A program made the position numbers and the translations under genes. Positions 3,050-51,799 of a stretch of DNA of 52,039 nt are shown here, one piece after another. Numbering within the stretch: position 1 is the first letter of the stretch; each line of letters starts with the position of its first letter. The stretch comes from a bacterium (lineage in GTDB: Bacteria > Patescibacteriota > Minisyncoccia > Phycocordibacterales > CAIZLB01). Location of the stretch: assembly GCA_037142735.1 (NCBI GenBank), contig JBAXAB010000004.1, forward strand, positions 1-52,039, in the 5' to 3' direction. Below the pieces are notes generated by a model that worked only from the letters and a program-made list of their open reading frames with translations, ran no database searches and was not told where the DNA came from.

Positions 3050-3706
3050 TTATTTCTTTGCTTCGTCTGCAGGAGCCTCTCCTTCTTCTTCTTTCTTTCC
3101 TTTCTTTTCTGATAGTTCGATAGCGGAAAGGTCAACTGGTGCAGCAACCTCTTCTACTTCTTCCTTAGCAGCAGCAACAATTGCGATAATTTCATCAGCA
3201 TCTGTCTTTAATTCAACACCTGATGGTAAATCAAGATCACTGGCCTTGATTTGAGACTCAAGATCAACTAGTTTAGAAATATCAACCTTGATTTCGTGTG
3301 GAAGATCTTTTGGCATAGCCTCGATTTCTACTTCGTGAAGAACCTTCACAAGTAAGGCTCCGAAAGTCTTGACTGCTGCGGCTTCACCAACGTATTCAAG
3401 TGGAACATGGAGAGTAATCTTTTTACCTTTTTCAAGTACCAAAAAGTCAATATGGCGGATTTTACCAGACACAGGATCAAGATCCATATCATGAACCAAT
3501 GTTTCGTGTTCTGTTCCATCAAGGTTTGCGACAATAACGGTTGATTCACCGGCCTGGCGGAAAGCCTTGATAAATTCGATTTCATTTACAGTAACAGATG
3601 TTGAAGGGTTTTTAGGGCCATACATAACAGCTGGAATTGTTCCAGTTCTTCGAAGTGATCCTAATTTGGCACCAGGTGCGCGTTTTTCTAAGGCAATTGA
3701 TATCAT
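3050..3706 (-). CDS. rplY: 50S ribosomal protein L25/Ctc (long form)
   Basis: LRRTGTIPAVMYG, HIDFL, PKDLPHEIKVDIS, acidic tail. Confidence 0.95.
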   Translation of the reverse strand: MISIALEKRAPGAKLGSLRRTGTIPAVMYGPKNPSTSVTVNEIEFIKAFRQAGESTVIVANLDGTEHETLVHDMDLDPVSGKIRHIDFLVLEKGKKITLHVPLEYVGEAAAVKTFGALLVKVLHEVEIEAMPKDLPHEIKVDISKLVDLESQIKASDLDLPSGVELKTDADEIIAIVAAAKEEVEEVAAPVDLSAIELSEKKGKKEEEGEAPADEAKK

Positions 3707-3765
3707 AGTTCTGAAAGTATATATATATTTAACAAGAAATCAAGTACCCTCCTGTAAGGAAACCT

Positions 3766-4656
3766 TTACTTGATACGATTCATTATCTTTAGCTTTTCCT
3801 CAACGACCTTCTGCACTGCCTCAATAGATGTGGCCATTATTTTGTATGGGGCCACTTCATCCGGGTTTTTAGCAAGAGTATCTCTGACGGCATTACGAAA
3901 AGCGATGCGCAATTCTGTATTATAGTGAACAATAGTCATTCCGTTTTCGGACGCAGATTCTAGATCTGAAGAACTGATACCCGAAGCGCCATGAAGCACC
4001 ATCGGCATATTTGTCGCCTCTGAAATCTCCTTAATTCTTTTAATATTCAAAGCAGGGTTCACTCCACTACGTAAAATTCCGTGAACATTTCCGACTGCAG
4101 GTGCAAGCATGTCAACACCGGTAGCATCTACAAAAGCCTTAGCTTCTGCCACAGATGAAACTGTCACGCCTTCAGGGATAGCGTCTAAAATTTTTGATGA
4201 AGTACCAATATAGCCAATCTCACCTTCAATCACCACATCCCGTCCTGTAGTTTCTCGAATCAATTTTGCATATTCAACTGACTGTTTTGCAATTATGATA
4301 TTTTGATCCATTGGAAGTTTTGCACCATCTATAATTGCAGAATCAAACCCTGCATCAATAGCCTCTTTGACGCGTTCGAAAGAATACGTGTGATCAGCGT
4401 TGAGGAAAATTGGGTGATTATTGTATTGATCTCGATAAGCTTGGACCAAAGCAACTGTCTGTTTTACTCCTACGAAATCTCTTTCGCCTTCTGACACTCC
4501 GATAATAACTGGGACGTTTAATTTAATTGCTGCCTGAACAATACCCCTCAGGCCTTCAAGGTTTGAAATATTAAAATGACCAATTGAAATCTTTTTAGCT
4601 CGTGCATTTTCGATAGTCTGTCTGTATGTGAGTCCGTTTGAAAATAATTTATTCAT
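3766..4656 (-). CDS. fba: Class II fructose-bisphosphate aldolase
   Basis: FLNADH, EGEIG, VDMLAPAVGNVHG, VLHGASG, NTELR; start moved to 4656 (TGCTACAAT just upstream). Confidence 0.92.
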   Translation of the reverse strand: MNKLFSNGLTYRQTIENARAKKISIGHFNISNLEGLRGIVQAAIKLNVPVIIGVSEGERDFVGVKQTVALVQAYRDQYNNHPIFLNADHTYSFERVKEAIDAGFDSAIIDGAKLPMDQNIIIAKQSVEYAKLIRETTGRDVVIEGEIGYIGTSSKILDAIPEGVTVSSVAEAKAFVDATGVDMLAPAVGNVHGILRSGVNPALNIKRIKEISEATNMPMVLHGASGISSSDLESASENGMTIVHYNTELRIAFRNAVRDTLAKNPDEVAPYKIMATSIEAVQKVVEEKLKIMNRIK

Positions 4657-4691
4657 GGATATATTGTAGCAATATTTTAGATAAAGTTCGA

Positions 4692-4717
4692 CCCCGGGCA
4701 CGCGAACGCGCCCGGGG
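4692..4717 (-). terminator. GC-rich hairpin ending the orphan gene transcript
   Basis: Minus strand CCCCGGGCGCG-TTCG-CGTGCCCGGGG (UUCG loop, G-U pair); weak U-tract. Confidence 0.6.
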
Positions 4718-4748
4718 CCAGAATACTATAGGTGGTGTTTTTAGAAGA

Positions 4749-5363
4749 CTACACTTTTCGCTTCCTTTCGTCCTTGAGGATGAGCTCGCATGTGACGAAT
4801 CCACAGGCGTCGTTCACCCTGACGGTGTCAAGGAGACCGAGGTCCCTGACCACTGTAGGTTTTTCTCCGCCTTCACCGAGGCAAATCTTCATGCAGTGGC
4901 AGCCGTCTTCGAAGCGGCACAGTGCAAGATGATTTGGATTGAGTTTTGTACCCGATTCAATGCGCAGGCGTTGAATGAAGTGCTTGTTCCCAACGATGAC
5001 TGCAAACTCTAGGCAGCCCATCGTGATCGTGTCGAGGTTCATCGTTTCGCTCACGGCACGAAGCCCGTTGACGATACAATCCCTGTTGAGATCGAGATCG
5101 TTTGGTGTGCGGCGCGCAATCGCAGCCAGCGAAATTCTGGTCCTGAACCTGTTTGCTGCCGCGAAACCTGCCAAACTTGGTGGCAGCTCAACGTGCTCGA
5201 AACAGAGCGCGGTCGGATCATCAATCTCCAACTGAAAGAGGCTCTTGACAAAAAGTGGCGGTGGGCCAAATCTTGATTGAGGAACTCTTGCTACTTGTAA
5301 GGCGCCCATGCCGACTCGGCGAAGGCCCTCTACCCCATCTCTAACTACGACGAACTTTGCCAT
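4749..5363 (-). CDS. Hypothetical protein, GC-rich orphan (~204 aa, MAKFVVVRDG...)
   Basis: Open frame with own promoter and 3' hairpin; sampled line 5041-5100 is 32/60 GC, above the flanks; no family recognised. Confidence 0.65.
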   Translation of the reverse strand: MAKFVVVRDGVEGLRRVGMGALQVARVPQSRFGPPPLFVKSLFQLEIDDPTALCFEHVELPPSLAGFAAANRFRTRISLAAIARRTPNDLDLNRDCIVNGLRAVSETMNLDTITMGCLEFAVIVGNKHFIQRLRIESGTKLNPNHLALCRFEDGCHCMKICLGEGGEKPTVVRDLGLLDTVRVNDACGFVTCELILKDERKRKV

Positions 5364-47839: not shown

Positions 47840-49258
47840 TTAGATAATCTCTACTGACATAAGGTTTGTCTCGCTTGTCCTGTTAAATGGCACGCCACTT
47901 AAGACTACAATTTCATCACCTTTTTTCACAATCTTCATCTTTTGAAGAATTGGCTTCATCATTTTAAGACCTTCTTCGAAAGTCTTCACGCGAGGAACTA
48001 GAACTGGGTAACACGCATACAACGCACATACTTGATTGTAAGTTGTTTGATTTGGAGTCATCACAATAATTGGATGAGCTGGGTGGTGACGAGACACGAA
48101 TCGTGCAGCGTGACCAAAATCAGTCAGGGCAACGATAGCAGTCGCTTCTATTCGGTCGGCAGTTTTTGCAGCAGCAGAGGCAATCGCTTCGCTCACGTTC
48201 TCGTGATCACCTCGATCACCTGTCACCATGAATTTGTGATATGGATCGTTTTCCACCTTTAAAGCAACTCGTGTAATCATTTCAACAGCAGCAATTGGGA
48301 ATTTTCCAAGAGTCGTCTCTTCTGACAACATGATAGCGTCCGCGCCATCAAGCATACCGTTTGCAATATCTGATACTTCGGCTCGTGTTGGCACCGGGCT
48401 TGAAATCATTGATTCCAAAACCTGAGTGGCAAGGATTACTGGCTTTCCTGCGGCCTTACACTTTTCAATCATCATTTTCTGAACGATTGGAACATTTTCA
48501 TAACCGATTTCAACCGCAAGGTCTCCTCGTGCAACCATGATCATGTCTGACAATTCGATGATGTCATCGATGTGCTCAACTGCTTCCTGAGTTTCAATCT
48601 TAGAGCAAATTAATGCTTTTGATTTAGCCTTATTCAAAATATCTCGCAATTCTTTAACGTCATCTGGTGTTCGCACGAATGAGAAGGCAATAATATCCGC
48701 TTTATTCTTGATACCAAAAATAACATCTTTTTTGTCCTTGTCAGTAAGAGAGCTCACTTTTAAATATGCACCTGGTAAGTTCACACCTCTCTTTCCCTTT
48801 GTCTCACCTCCGACAATGATTTTACATTTAATGTCAGTGCCCTTGATTTCCACTACTTCGAATTTCTTTTTACCATCATCAACCATGATCATGTTTCCTA
48901 CTTTTAATTCCTTGTGAAGAGTTGGGTAGTTTATTGAAACTCTTTTCTCATCACCAACAATATTGTCCGGAGTAAGTGTAATAAAGTCCCCTGCCTTTAG
49001 ATTTACTCGTTCCTGATAGAATGCACCGATTCGGAATTTTGGTCCTGATAAGTCCTGTAAAATCGCTGCAGGAATTCCAGTTTTCTTCATAGCCTTTTTC
49101 AAGTTATCAAACTTGTGCTGGTGTTCTGCGAAATCTCCATGAGAGAAGTTCATTCTCATTACGTTCATACCGGCTTTTAACATTTTTTCTAACTGTTCTT
49201 GTGATTCTGTTGCCGGACCGATAGTTGCTACGATTTTTGTTTTCTTACCTATGTGCAT
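47840..49258 (-). CDS. pyk: Pyruvate kinase
   Basis: KTKIVATIGPA, RMNFSHG, DLSGPK, KIET, MVARGDL, ATQVLESM, DAIMLSEET. Confidence 0.98.
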   Translation of the reverse strand: MHIGKKTKIVATIGPATESQEQLEKMLKAGMNVMRMNFSHGDFAEHQHKFDNLKKAMKKTGIPAAILQDLSGPKFRIGAFYQERVNLKAGDFITLTPDNIVGDEKRVSINYPTLHKELKVGNMIMVDDGKKKFEVVEIKGTDIKCKIIVGGETKGKRGVNLPGAYLKVSSLTDKDKKDVIFGIKNKADIIAFSFVRTPDDVKELRDILNKAKSKALICSKIETQEAVEHIDDIIELSDMIMVARGDLAVEIGYENVPIVQKMMIEKCKAAGKPVILATQVLESMISSPVPTRAEVSDIANGMLDGADAIMLSEETTLGKFPIAAVEMITRVALKVENDPYHKFMVTGDRGDHENVSEAIASAAAKTADRIEATAIVALTDFGHAARFVSRHHPAHPIIVMTPNQTTYNQVCALYACYPVLVPRVKTFEEGLKMMKPILQKMKIVKKGDEIVVLSGVPFNRTSETNLMSVEII

Positions 49259-49341
49259 TGTATTCTGATGATTTATTTTATTAATATTATGCGAGAATCG
49301 AAATACCACCTGGATGACCAGGCAATTAAAATCGAACTGCG

Positions 49342-49414
49342 TGCGCGTGCCAAGATTCGAACTTGGGACCTAACGAGTATCAGTCGTTTGCTCTACCAAC
49401 TGAGCTACACGCGC
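49342..49414 (-). tRNA. tRNA-Ile(GAU), CCA not encoded
   Basis: GCGCGTG/CACGCGC acceptor, GCTC-AGTTGGTA-GAGC D arm, AACGA-CT GAT AC-TCGTT anticodon arm, CCAAG-TTCGAAT-CTTGG T arm, A73. Confidence 0.95.
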
Positions 49415-49482
49415 ACGCAATCAAATTTCGCCTATATAGAGTAACAAAATATGGCTGAAAATCAAGGGTAGTAGCCCGAAAT

Positions 49483-49510
49483 TTGACATTATTCCACCCC
49501 CACCTATAAT
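49483..49510 (+). promoter_or_regulatory. Consensus sigma70 promoter (sRNA unit 1)
   Basis: TTGACA-16-TATAAT, perfect hexamers; no ORF downstream. Confidence 0.8.
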
Positions 49511-49516
49511 TACCCC

Positions 49517-49569
49517 ATTACGGCCTTCGGGCTCCGAGATTGCCACCCTGCAGGGTGGCTTTCGTTTTT
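49517..49569 (+). ncRNA. Putative ~50-nt small RNA (unit 1)
   Basis: GCC-TTCG-GGC (cUUCGg) hairpin then GCCACCC-TGCA-GGGTGGC followed by TTTCGTTTTT. Confidence 0.6.
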
Positions 49570-49579
49570 ATATCAACAC

Positions 49580-49607
49580 TTGACTTGATATTCAGATTAA
49601 TTATAAT
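49580..49607 (+). promoter_or_regulatory. Near-consensus sigma70 promoter (sRNA unit 2)
   Basis: TTGACT-16-TATAAT. Confidence 0.72.
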
Positions 49608-49613
49608 TGTGCC

Positions 49614-49676
49614 AATAGAGGGGTTGCCTCTCTTGCTCGAAAGAGCCGATAGCCCCGAAAGGGGCTATTATATTTT
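49614..49676 (+). ncRNA. Putative ~60-nt small RNA (unit 2), ending over the toxin stop codon
   Basis: AGAGG/CCTCT, GCTC-GAAA-GAGC and ATAGCCCC-GAAA-GGGGCTAT hairpins, then T-rich tail. Confidence 0.55.
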
Positions 49677-50057
49677 GTACAAACCAAGAAGACAATCTAA
49701 TACTTTTGTATAATCTCTCTCCACTACACGTCCTATCTTTTTTGTTAACCTCCTCTTGTCAAAGTTTCGTATTTGAGAAACCAACGCAGTACCTAACTTA
49801 TAATTAAATCTTATTATACAGGAGTACTTTCCGTTTTTAAGTTTTGATGTGAGAGGAATCCCAATAAAACCTTCTCCAATTTCTGCGTTTATGATTAGGA
49901 CAGGTCTTGTGTAGTCATCTCCCTTTCCATATATTTCTGTTCCAACATTCATTCCAACGCTACACCACCAAACTTCTTTTTCTTTAGGGTGATTATATTT
50001 TTTATTTGAATCGATCGATATTTTCTTCTTATTCCACTTATCAAAATCTTTCTCCAT
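49668..50057 (-). CDS. PemK/MazF-family endoribonuclease toxin (orphan)
   Basis: EVWWCSVGMNVGTEIYGK..RPVLII, IPLTS, SQIRNFDKRRL..IG; start moved to MEKDFDKW. Confidence 0.88.
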   Translation of the reverse strand: MEKDFDKWNKKKISIDSNKKYNHPKEKEVWWCSVGMNVGTEIYGKGDDYTRPVLIINAEIGEGFIGIPLTSKLKNGKYSCIIRFNYKLGTALVSQIRNFDKRRLTKKIGRVVERDYTKVLDCLLGLYKI

Positions 50058-50104
50058 AATAACCGACCATACTAAAGTCACATTAAGAAAAAGTGAAGTA
50101 ATTA

Positions 50105-50386
50105 TCAAAAAAGCCAAGTAACCAAATTGGCGACAACTGACCCTCCTATCGCCAGCCACCAAGGGATTTTAAGGAGGTATTTATAGATAACTGACTCAAC
50201 GACAATAACCCCCACTTCTATGTGCCATAGAGGGTAATGATAGATTAAAAGCAACCTAGATCCTATTGGATGGGTAATCAAATTCACCGCCAAAATAGCA
50301 AAAGCTGCCCTCGGCCACTGTTTATAAAAAACAAAACCCAGAATAAAAAATTCAATAAGAATGGTGCGGAATAAGAGTATCGTCAT
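50105..50386 (-). CDS. Small polytopic membrane protein
   Basis: 93 aa, 3-4 hydrophobic segments with embedded E, N, H (TILIE, NLITHP, HIE..VVE); directly abuts the upstream gene. Confidence 0.7.
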   Translation of the reverse strand: MTILLFRTILIEFFILGFVFYKQWPRAAFAILAVNLITHPIGSRLLLIYHYPLWHIEVGVIVVESVIYKYLLKIPWWLAIGGSVVANLVTWLF

Positions 50387-51799
50387 CTATTTCTTTTTGC
50401 GACGGAGCCTAGTCGCTAATTCAATAATTATCAACCCCATAACAGCAAACCCGACAATGAAGTACCATAGACTTTCAGCGGTATAAACCGGTTCGCCATC
50501 TAGTGAAATAATTTGTGGACGACCAATTGGAGGAGGTGTCGGCACCGGTCCGCTTCCTCCATAATACACTTGCCCTTGAACAAGCATATTCTTTTCAGAA
50601 TCAGGTGCCTGATCAGCATTAATTCCTCTTTGATGTTCCATATTGTCATAATCCTTTGACCATTTTTTCTCATCAAGCATTACCGATAATTCATAAGGCA
50701 AGAAAGAAATATCTTTTGAAATCAAGTAATTTCTGCCACCAACCGTAGTTGTCGCTATACCATCCATTTCTAAATGAATTCCTAAATGCCTATCAGGACT
50801 TTGTGTAAGAGTTGAATTCAAATTATCAATCGTCTTGTTGTATTGGCTTACGCATCCAAAATCGTCTACTGTCAGCATGTTCATGTCTTTTTCGCTTCCA
50901 GACTTCAATTTGGCTATATATTCAGGATAGTATTGGAATATTCGTCTCGAGTAACCTGTCCCATTCCAGGACAATCCAACAATCCTTTCAGTGATCTTAT
51001 CAATGCTTGTTGAGGGACAAGTTTTAGCTAATGACGAATTCAACAGATCATCTGCTGGATAGTAGTAATCAATTTTTAAGAAAGTTGAAGACCCATTATT
51101 TAATTTATACGCAGATGTCACATACCGAACATTGTCATTATTTTTTTCTATAGGTTCAATATCCCTAATCGAATCATCTGGATCTGGAATACTTGTCAAC
51201 AAATACACAGTTGAAGTAATTCCATTATAACCCTGGCATCTCGACTGCCATTCTTTGCTCTTTATCGTGCTACATTGAGCGACCAAATTCGTGCGAACAT
51301 AAGAAGGAAAATTTAATCCTAGATAACCCTCTACTGGGTCAACCGCAACGTCAATATGAGAACCTACCAATTCTGTACTGTCAAAAAAATCAGTCGTCAG
51401 GATTTTAGCGTTAGGATCTAAATCATTCAGGTTGTCCTGCACTGTCTCTTTCTTTACCAAGAAAAATTCATATATAGCGGGATATGGACCCTTTTCGTGC
51501 AAAGCTATAAATTTGTTATAACTTTCGACCTCTCTTTCTTGTGATGCAAAACAATGCCCTACTGTAACCTTTTTCCAAGGAAGCCTGTATTGATTTTCCT
51601 GTGACTTGGTGTAGTCATAGTAAACTTCAAATCCTTTATCGTTTAGAGATTTTAACAATGTCGGATCAAATTCCGTACAACTTGCAGATGGATAAGTTAT
51701 TTTAAATTTTCCTGCTGGAGAAAAATCATCCGCACTTGCTGTTGGGACTAGAACAAACCAAGCCAGTAATAAAAAAAATCCTAAGAGTTTTATTTTCAT
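50387..51799 (-). CDS. Exported Cys-containing surface protein with C-terminal membrane anchor
   Basis: Signal peptide (..ASA|D), several Cys, PVPTPPP linker, C-terminal TM and RLRRKKK. Confidence 0.8.
   Translation of the reverse strand: MKIKLLGFFLLLAWFVLVPTASADDFSPAGKFKITYPSASCTEFDPTLLKSLNDKGFEVYYDYTKSQENQYRLPWKKVTVGHCFASQEREVESYNKFIALHEKGPYPAIYEFFLVKKETVQDNLNDLDPNAKILTTDFFDSTELVGSHIDVAVDPVEGYLGLNFPSYVRTNLVAQCSTIKSKEWQSRCQGYNGITSTVYLLTSIPDPDDSIRDIEPIEKNNDNVRYVTSAYKLNNGSSTFLKIDYYYPADDLLNSSLAKTCPSTSIDKITERIVGLSWNGTGYSRRIFQYYPEYIAKLKSGSEKDMNMLTVDDFGCVSQYNKTIDNLNSTLTQSPDRHLGIHLEMDGIATTTVGGRNYLISKDISFLPYELSVMLDEKKWSKDYDNMEHQRGINADQAPDSEKNMLVQGQVYYGGSGPVPTPPPIGRPQIISLDGEPVYTAESLWYFIVGFAVMGLIIIELATRLRRKKK

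Follow-up and report, generated by a model that had tools for sequence, protein, structure and literature searches.

A MazF-fold toxin subfamily paired with convergent, structured small RNAs: a candidate toxin-antitoxin module with an RNA antitoxin

The stretch of DNA analyzed here, which we refer to as the window, comprises positions 1–52,039 (52,039 nt) of contig JBAXAB010000004.1 from assembly GCA_037142735.1, a bacterium of the Patescibacteriota. Close to one end of the window, a minus-strand open reading frame (ORF) of 129 amino acids (49668–50057) is predicted to encode an endoribonuclease toxin of the PemK/MazF family, and it is faced across its 3′ end by two plus-strand genes for small structured RNAs, referred to as “unit 1” and “unit 2”. 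In most related loci, genes of the same toxin subfamily are accompanied by such an RNA gene, located on the opposite strand at the toxin gene 3′ end, and no protein partner recurs beside them. The module is very probably a toxin-antitoxin system with an RNA antitoxin of some kind. As to how the RNA would act, we have a tentative preference for direct binding of the toxin protein, similar to what occurs in type III toxin-antitoxin systems.

Each RNA unit has its own promoter and terminator. The unit 1 promoter matches the consensus at 12 of 12 positions (TTGACA-16-TATAAT; 49483–49510). The unit 1 RNA (49517–49572) consists of a 5′ hairpin with a cUUCGg loop (49522–49533), the linker CCGAGA, a terminator hairpin (about 49535–49564, with the stem at 49542–49559), and a U tract (tail TTTCGTTTTT). 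This RNA is positioned 97–155 nt past the toxin stop codon, and so does not overlap the toxin ORF. The unit 2 promoter matches the consensus at 11 of 12 positions (TTGACT-16-TATAAT; 49580–49607). The unit 2 RNA (49614–49680) has three hairpins: hairpin 1 (49617–49633), hairpin 2 with a GNRA loop (49635–49646), which is followed by the linker CCGAU, and terminator hairpin 3 (49648–49669), whose U-rich tail (ATATTTTGTA) extends across the toxin stop codon (49668–49670). Hairpin 3 itself overlaps the stop codon by two bases. The predicted folding energy is −22.6 kcal/mol for unit 1 (z = −3.56; 1/200 shuffled sequences equally good) and −29.6 kcal/mol for unit 2 (z = −4.68; 0/200). On the toxin strand, there is no U tract after the hairpins of either unit. 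These observations bear out a first-pass annotation of the window, which had described a PemK/MazF toxin facing two plus-strand promoter-hairpin-terminator units, with unit 2 ending over the toxin stop codon and with no U tract on the toxin strand. Unit 2 shares its core design with unit 1 (in unit 2, a small GNRA hairpin, CCGAU, and the terminator), with one extra hairpin on the 5′ side. Both of the tandem units proposed by the annotation exist, but they are not equally novel: sequence comparison indicates that the unit 1 type is ancestral and widespread, and that unit 2, with its three hairpins, is derived and occurs only in the closest toxin clade.

Taken alone, the arrangement in the window could be due to chance, because promoter-like sites are no more numerous there than in shuffled sequence. 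There are five such sites in the interval 49000–50600, compared to a shuffle mean of 4.7; the two unit promoters are distinguished by their score and position, not by number. The case against chance depends on comparative counts across related loci, described below. We rejected two other explanations for the sequence of the units. First, a 57-amino acid plus-strand ORF (49540–49713) has a TTG start and spans both units, in a region whose evolution follows paired stems rather than codons. Second, a dispersed palindromic repeat, such as a repetitive extragenic palindromic element, was rejected because there is a single strong copy of each unit in the 730-kb genome (54 bits and 91 bits with the RNA models R1 and R2 described below, with all other matches at ≤26 bits).

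The predicted toxin matches the Pfam family PemK_toxin (PF02452; E = 1.3e-12; 48.3 bits, with a curated cut-off of 23.1); a Pfam scan of the protein matched this family alone, with no ToxN/AbiQ-type family. Foldseek comparison of an AlphaFold (AF2) model (predicted local distance difference test score of 83; predicted template modeling [TM] score of 0.80) to the PDB gave best matches that are all MazF, EndoA, or MoxT (probability 1.0; query TM-score 0.62–0.70), including Bacillus subtilis YdcE/EndoA and Staphylococcus aureus MazF. A profile built from 30 members of the toxin family also retrieves EndoA (B. subtilis) and MazF (S. aureus) from the PDB, with E about 1e-8. The modeled protein has the SH3-like barrel fold of MazF/Kid. 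In an alignment of 30 sequences (A1), R51 does not vary, and its counterpart in B. subtilis EndoA is the Arg of the GVRPVLV motif; position 70, in a PLTS motif, is either T or S in all of the rows read, and its EndoA counterpart is the Thr of ITAQ. We take the corresponding EndoA residues to be the catalytic Arg and Thr of the MazF active site, and the window toxin looks catalytically intact. The subfamily is marked by an N-terminal helix (residues 5–16) with the motif KDFDKWN in the window toxin (KDFDxWN across the family, with W8 invariant) that is absent from canonical MazF.

Conservation of the toxin-RNA pairing

A scan of species-representative genomes identified 346 stretches that encode relatives of the toxin, with 79 loci being retained; the main comparison set consists of 80 loci, with 320 random windows as a control. 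RNA genes were counted using a strict descriptor (a promoter matching at least 9/12 positions, a small hairpin, a linker, and a hairpin of at least 6 bp) and a relaxed, promoter-free version. The strict descriptor was matched on the opposite strand at the toxin gene 3′ end in 60/80 loci, compared to 1/80 on the same strand and 2/320 random windows. Similarly, the relaxed descriptor was matched in 59/80 loci, compared to 4/80 on the same strand and 14/320 random windows. For all 21 loci missed by the relaxed descriptor, an RNA with a variant geometry is visible by eye; 11 of these are of the unit 2 type, and 10 have bulged, longer, or AU-rich stems. Since the descriptors were composed after inspection of the data, we added a separately drawn sample of the phylum as a check. 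This sample has 151 genomes (150 evenly drawn, plus the source genome of the window), with a broadened descriptor being applied to the toxin genes. The descriptor was matched on the opposite strand for 19/24 toxin genes, compared to 1/24 on the same strand and 2/96 random windows. Of the five misses, two (L100 and L104) have an RNA that is visible by eye, one is truncated at a contig end, one is a toxin gene fragment, and the last (L107) shows nothing. Promoter-hairpin units therefore recur in the flanks of toxin homologs, which is where the first-pass annotation had proposed looking for them, and, as described below, their stems covary.

The type of RNA varies with the relatedness of the toxin. 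In the closest clade (the window and L001–L014; toxins 55–71% identical), the three-hairpin unit 2 is located directly after the stop codon. A promoter-like site is visible by eye at the same place on the opposite strand in the unit 2 loci (n = 14), with a match of at least 9/12 in the promoter scan for only seven (the window, L002, L003, L009, L010, L011, and L013). In most of the more distant relatives (toxins 37–47% identical), a unit 1-type RNA is located directly at the toxin stop codon. These RNAs have a common layout: a promoter (mostly TTGACA or TTGACT, a 16–17 nt spacer, and TAnnnT), a 7–10 nt leader, a 3–5-bp GC hairpin, a linker (CCGAG, CCGAU, CGA, CACA.., etc.), and a long C-rich/G-rich hairpin. 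In most loci with an unextended toxin ORF, the long hairpin ends 1–13 nt from the stop codon. Both unit types occur in tandem in the window, L001, L005, L007, and L008, and tandem second copies recur in L015 and L051 (detected with model R1) and L050 (by eye). In some loci, the toxin ORF has no stop codon before the RNA gene and continues across the complement of that gene (L015, L034, L035, L054, L055, and L057, with tails ending in ..AGSSGAEANV; L018, L040, L044, and L078, with tails ending in ..GIGG/KSQ). These predicted tails of 10–17 residues appear conserved only because the underlying RNA is conserved.

A single model for all RNA classes performed poorly, with MAFFT misaligning the variable long hairpin and RNAalifold keeping just the 3-bp small hairpin. 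We therefore built class-specific models (R1 for the unit 1 class and R2 for unit 2), and the remaining RNAs were counted using the descriptors. R1 was built from 20 seeds, one of which is unit 1 itself (54.2 bits; E = 1.9e-17). In the 80 source sequences, R1 has 28 matches with E < 1e-8, all at a toxin gene 3′ end; 20 of these are the seeds and eight are new, including second tandem copies and copies beside extra toxin paralogs (L017 and L034). R2 matches unit 2 with 91.1 bits, and there is no other strong R2 match in the rest of the genome. One RNA unit has no adjacent toxin gene (genome G069, contig 1:255122–255180; L097:1501–1559). It consists of a hairpin, a CUCGA linker, a GC hairpin, and a U tract, and is ~950 nt from another toxin-RNA pair. 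This orphan may be an antitoxin left behind after loss of its toxin.

Comparison of the RNA sequences supports the predicted structures. For unit 2 (14 sequences aligned with MAFFT; alignment A5), 98.9% of alignment cells at paired positions can pair, and 10/20 base pairs have compensatory changes, with 0/500 shuffled alignments scoring as high; sliding the pairing partners reduces pairing to 44–56%. Compensatory changes are plain in L010, L011, and L013. For the unit 1 class (20 sequences), 94.4% of cells are paired, and 7/11 base pairs have compensatory changes. Across classes (38 sequences), the small hairpin interchanges GC, CG, AU, and GU pairs. There is also evidence for the coding strand. 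In the long hairpins of 58 loci, 25 G-U pairs were counted on the RNA strand, compared to four on the toxin strand (i.e., A-C on the RNA strand; binomial p = 1e-4), although this count is biased upward, both by the search for hairpins, which permitted G-U pairs on the RNA strand, and by relatedness among the loci. Lastly, GNRA and UUCG loops can be read only on the RNA strand. By these comparative measures, a real structured RNA is encoded on the strand opposite the toxin. Rfam has no relevant match in the window region (E ≤ 10) or in the RNA of 10 related loci (E ≤ 1), RF02913 included; a weak match to rnk_pseudo in L052 was rejected as a terminator look-alike (28.8 bits, compared to a gathering score of 55). 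RF02913 is a cis-regulatory RNA motif named “pemK”, and its likeness to the RNAs described here is limited to the name and an association with pemK genes, with no covariance-model match. The main text of Weinberg et al. 2017 makes no mention of the pemK motif.

The source genome provides an internal control. The 730,536-bp assembly has five PemK-domain genes: four N-extended toxins of the subfamily, each with its own convergent promoter and an RNA of a different class, and one canonical mazE-mazF operon. The PemK loci outside the window are at contig 18:4454–4837, contig 2:68619–68999, contig 12:3286–3666, and contig 1:1097–1629 (L081–L083, L122, and L123). For the paralogs on contigs 12 and 18 (C12 and C18), the third hairpin is a bidirectional terminator common to the RNA and the toxin gene, meaning that the toxin mRNA would end before the RNA core. 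The first-pass annotation had allowed for a protein antitoxin encoded elsewhere in the genome; this found no support, with the sole MazE gene (contig 1:1097–1231) being part of the separate mazEF operon, directly upstream of a canonical 108-amino acid MazF without the N-terminal extension. There is no MazE or PemI (AbrB or ribbon-helix-helix type) adjacent to the window toxin, whose neighbors have no Pfam match. No recurring neighbor protein was found among 688 ORFs within 450 nt of the toxin genes, with the commonest family being present in 6/80 loci, and no small ORF family recurs in the 80 loci. Together, the conservation, the covariation, and the lack of a recurring neighbor protein strongly support the earlier proposal that the toxin is partnered by separately promoted, structured RNAs and has no protein antitoxin.

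Distribution and the pVir relative

The toxin was found in 16 of the 151 genomes in the phylum sample (including the source genome), with up to five copies per genome. The source names of toxin relatives include Pacebacteria, Nomurabacteria, and Kaiserbacteria. Outside the candidate phyla radiation (CPR), there are relatives in metagenome-assembled genomes (MAGs) labeled Rickettsiales, Bdellovibrionales, and others. There are also toxin matches in the records of plasmids (108, of which 54 are from Burkholderia, 38 from Campylobacter, and 8 from Helicobacter) and phages (14, Campylobacter CJIE4 prophages among them). The Burkholderia copies, which were seen as search matches only, are the most distant (32% identity). 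The patchy, multi-copy, plasmid- and prophage-borne distribution resembles that of mobile addiction modules. The suggestion in the first-pass annotation of an anti-phage role found no support: a pattern search of IMG/VR yielded no toxin relatives, PADLOC gave no defense-system match for the toxin or its two upstream neighbors, and the distribution is that of an addiction module. Two of the plasmid copies have distinctive features. In Campylobacter coli plasmid NZ_CP149885.1 (L092; 1120–1578), the toxin gene is broken by a frameshift and a stop codon, and is annotated from an internal start only. In a Nitratiruptor plasmid (L093), the toxin-RNA pair is followed by a 62-amino acid ORF on the toxin strand (1601–1789) whose start resembles a ribbon-helix-helix protein by eye; this ORF has no Pfam match.

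The pVir plasmid of Campylobacter jejuni 81-176 has a PemK/MazF-family gene of 134 amino acids (NC_008770.1, 30634–31038). Over 102 residues, the encoded protein shares 39% identity with the window toxin; this region takes in the N-terminal motif, in the form FDEWN. No adjacent antitoxin is annotated. Just downstream, the opposite strand has a promoter-like sequence (TTGATT-17-TATAAT), then hairpins, and finally a terminator (CCCCG..CGGGG) that adjoins the stop codon. Neither the pVir RNA nor that of the Nitratiruptor plasmid is detected by models R1 and R2, meaning that the likeness shown is one of architecture rather than of RNA homology. The pVir small RNA CjrA reportedly has the protein toxin CjpT as its partner. 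Papers that cite Shen et al. 2016 (Mol Microbiol 101:909) describe CjrA as a type I antitoxin, a small RNA that acts in antisense. The pVir PemK gene and its convergent RNA are probably CjpT and CjrA, an identity that we infer. The first-pass annotation had proposed an undescribed, RNA-controlled MazF module; the RNA partnership holds up, but “undescribed” goes too far, given the 39%-identical toxin with the same convergent layout on pVir. If the pVir pair is CjrA/CjpT, this kind of module is known from one plasmid, and what is new is how widely it occurs, how its RNA folds, and its presence in the CPR. CjrA/CjpT was labeled type I and studied as a single plasmid-stability system, whereas the loci described here represent a widespread family with a conserved RNA fold. 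Citations of CjrA aside, a literature search found no described MazF/PemK family with a conserved RNA partner.

Possible mechanisms of RNA action

We propose that the module would function as follows. The partner RNA is predicted to be short and to be transcribed strongly and separately, with a 5′ leader followed by two GC hairpins, the first small and the second long, that are joined by a short linker. Its gene faces the toxin gene and terminates at the toxin stop codon, with two paralogous RNA genes in tandem in the case of the window. The folded RNA would bind the toxin dimer, probably in or beside the RNA-binding groove, keeping the toxin inactive. If RNA synthesis stopped or the RNA were degraded, stable toxin would be released and would cut cellular RNA. 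In this scheme, it is the toxicity, the neutralization, and the mode of binding that we infer from sequence.

ToxN reportedly shares a fold with Kid/MazF, and the proposed mechanism has precedent in type III toxin-antitoxin systems. In these systems (ToxIN, CptIN, and TenpIN; for reviews, see PMC5086642 and PMC3401426), an endoribonuclease toxin is restrained by a small structured RNA, the units of which can be in tandem. The type III RNA is a set of identical tandem repeats located upstream of the toxin gene, on the same strand and in the same operon, with a terminator in between; the toxin excises the units. By contrast, the RNA genes described here are downstream of the toxin gene and convergent with it, and every one is separately promoted and terminated; the two units in the window differ in sequence, and there is no upstream repeat array. 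Moreover, the window toxin belongs to Pfam family PemK and is structurally closest to MazF, rather than being a ToxN.

There are several features of the module that argue for direct binding. First, features of RNA sequence and shape are kept between toxins that are only 37–47% identical. Second, the long hairpin is retained in loci where a third hairpin is the terminator, which in two of the source-genome paralogs is bidirectional. Third, unit 1 has a perfect promoter despite its distance from the toxin ORF. Fourth, tandem second copies of the RNA recur in other loci. Fifth, there are four paralogous pairs in one genome, each with a distinct RNA. Sixth, the toxin appears catalytically intact, with R51 being invariant. 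Lastly, closed tetraloops, such as those of the RNAs, are poor kissing loops. We rejected pairing with the mRNA 5′ region of the kind seen in par, since there is no cognate-specific pairing in either the 5′ region or the coding sequence: the RNA core pairs with the 5′ region of its own toxin mRNA at −12.46 kcal/mol, compared to −12.54 kcal/mol for non-cognate combinations (median rank 28 of 57), and with the coding sequence at −22.91 kcal/mol, compared to −22.68 kcal/mol. In 27/75 loci, a −10 box (at least 5/6 matches, often TGnTAnAAT) ends 5–10 nt before the toxin ATG, with a peak at 6 nt, compared to a mean of 4.0 loci for other windows (70 nt upstream scanned). This implies that the toxin mRNA is leaderless in many CPR members, making control through a 5′ untranslated region unlikely in those loci.

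Other observations weigh against direct binding, or against the strength of the association. The RNA always adjoins the stop codon; an RNA directed at a protein does not need this position, and cis-antisense systems typically show it. In most loci, the hairpin has no U tract when read on the toxin strand, so transcription of the toxin gene probably continues into the RNA gene, which would make the mRNA complementary to the RNA. The probable characterized relative, CjrA, is cited as an antisense type I antitoxin. A 5′ hairpin with a terminator is the minimal design of any stable small RNA. In the phylum sample, L107 is a full-length toxin with no visible RNA, and only one of the three R1 matches outside the source genome abuts a toxin gene, with one being the orphan and one probably being spurious. 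Elsewhere, the promoters of distal tandem copies are weaker. Lastly, relatedness among loci means that the counts overstate the independent support, and the G-U count has the upward bias noted above. Weighing these points, we lean toward direct inhibition over antisense regulation.

Type I-like antisense regulation is the strongest alternative, and we consider it possible, if somewhat less probable than direct inhibition. In this scenario, a toxin mRNA without its own terminator reads through the RNA gene, the abundant small RNA pairs with the 3′ extension, the duplex is cut (e.g., by RNase III), and the mRNA decays. At loci with a weak RNA terminator, the toxin gene itself may in addition be transcribed in antisense. 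Models for antisense decay of this type are txpA/RatA and bsrG/SR4 of B. subtilis. Both are type I systems with 3′-overlapping, convergent RNAs, as is Enterococcus faecalis par, where RNA I and RNA II share a bidirectional terminator. The loci described here are similar to these systems in having a convergent, self-promoted small RNA that overlaps the 3′ end of the toxin gene, and, for some loci, a shared bidirectional terminator. In the window, the 3′ end of the unit 2 RNA covers the toxin stop codon; in loci with a bidirectional terminator, overlap would be limited to that hairpin. An antisense mechanism is consistent with the convergent orientation and with the position of the RNA 3′ end, which falls on the stop codon in nearly all loci, as well as with the lack of a toxin-strand U tract after the hairpin, the lack of a clear RNA-strand U tract on the long hairpin in 22/58 parsed loci, and the cited role of CjrA. 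However, known type I toxins are small membrane peptides, whereas the toxin here is a 129-amino acid soluble RNase with a MazF fold. RNA structure and motifs are kept across distant toxins, which is not needed for cis-antisense complementarity, and the RNA fold is conserved across phyla. A bidirectional terminator lies between the toxin gene and the RNA core in C12, C18, and loci such as L027, L039, L049, and L053, and unit 1 in the window lies beyond the promoter of unit 2. The RNA loops are closed tetraloops, there is no cognate-specific pairing elsewhere in the toxin mRNA, and no 5′ pairing element resembling the par repeats was detected.

An improbable alternative is that the RNAs are not antitoxins, and are instead small RNAs with another target, substrates or guides of the nuclease, or promoter-terminator roadblocks that insulate downstream genes from toxin gene read-through. 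A consensus promoter occupied by RNA polymerase is a known roadblock, and the orphan RNA-like unit without an adjacent toxin also fits this scenario. However, the association with the toxin is near-universal and strand-specific across phyla, each paralog has its own RNA variant, the stems covary, which an insulator would not need, and four intact MazF-type nucleases would be hard to maintain in a 730-kb genome without a neutralizer. It is more improbable still that the toxin is neutralized by a protein (a MazE encoded elsewhere, an unrecognized small protein, or the N-terminal extension of the toxin itself) or that it is not toxic: the single MazE gene, the N-terminal helix of unassigned role, and the 62-amino acid ORF after the Nitratiruptor copy could each be taken in favor of this, but MazE is directly upstream of its own canonical MazF, none of the small ORFs flanking the toxin in the 80 loci belongs to a recurring family, the Nitratiruptor ORF has no Pfam match, and the residues aligned with the catalytic Arg and Thr of MazF are kept.

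With respect to the type II systems mazEF and pemIK, the toxins described here belong to the same family, with the same fold and the same aligned catalytic Arg and Thr/Ser, and differ in having an extra N-terminal helix and no upstream mazE or pemI. Direct inhibition by RNA can be extended to an evolutionary scenario, to which we give limited credence: a MazF-fold subfamily marked by the FDxWN helix, and found in the CPR, in Rickettsiales- and Bdellovibrionales-labeled MAGs, and on Campylobacterota plasmids and prophages, may have replaced MazE with a ~50-nt, two-hairpin RNA that blocks the toxin protein. The subfamily would constitute a fourth, architecturally distinct type III family, with convergent, self-promoted, single-unit RNAs that co-diversify with their toxins.

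MazF is a textbook type II toxin, with the MazE protein taken as its antidote. If the scenario described above is correct, this would be the first case of a bona fide MazF inhibited by RNA, and a large branch of MazF that depends on a conserved small RNA would blur the boundaries between types I, II, and III. Co-diversification of RNA and toxin would let four insulated pairs coexist in one 730-kb genome, many “orphan” PemK/MazF annotations would be explained, and an RNA family that Rfam lacks would be added. We know of almost no small RNAs in candidate-phyla bacteria, which would gain a clear and testable small RNA gene whose promoters are recognizably of the sigma-70 type. With its four divergent toxin-RNA pairs, this minimal genome is a natural system for studying insulation of RNA-protein or RNA-RNA specificity, and, if the pVir pair belongs to the family, a cultivable organism with such a module already exists.

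Genomic surroundings

Upstream of the window toxin are two minus-strand ORFs: a hydrophobic ORF of 93 amino acids (50105–50386) and an ORF of 470 amino acids (50387–51799) whose product begins with a signal-like segment and ends in a hydrophobic anchor. Neither has a match in Pfam, NCBIfam, or PADLOC. A weak candidate promoter for the toxin gene can be read from the sequence on the minus strand (TTCACT-17-TAGTAT; 50069–50097), with the −10 element ending 11 nt before the ATG; it matches 8/12 positions, which is below what the promoter scan lists. Alternatively, the toxin gene may be co-transcribed with the two upstream genes.

The commonest neighbor family in the comparison set is an uncharacterized protein of about 570–620 amino acids, with a zinc-ribbon-like motif (CxxC...CPxC) at its start and no match in Pfam. 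Its genes were located in five loci, twice in L040 (L024:3485–5359; L040:1069–2847 and 3447–5222; L044:1059–2849; L056:966–2729; L062:3550–5250).

Downstream of the window toxin, after ~250 nt without annotated genes other than the RNA units, there is a minus-strand tRNA-Ile(GAU) gene (49341–49414), and the next gene past it is a minus-strand ORF of 489 amino acids (47840–49309) that looks like pyruvate kinase. Public sequencing runs containing this stretch are mostly DNA metagenomes; in four runs (one labeled RNA and three tentatively so), the matching sequences are contigs of relatives that cover the tRNA gene or portions of the toxin gene. In several loci, the module has tRNA genes nearby, at distances ranging from a few hundred to ~1700 nt (the window, 49341–49414; the flanks of L005 and L012; L020:5092–5165), which may reflect insertion of the module near tRNA genes.

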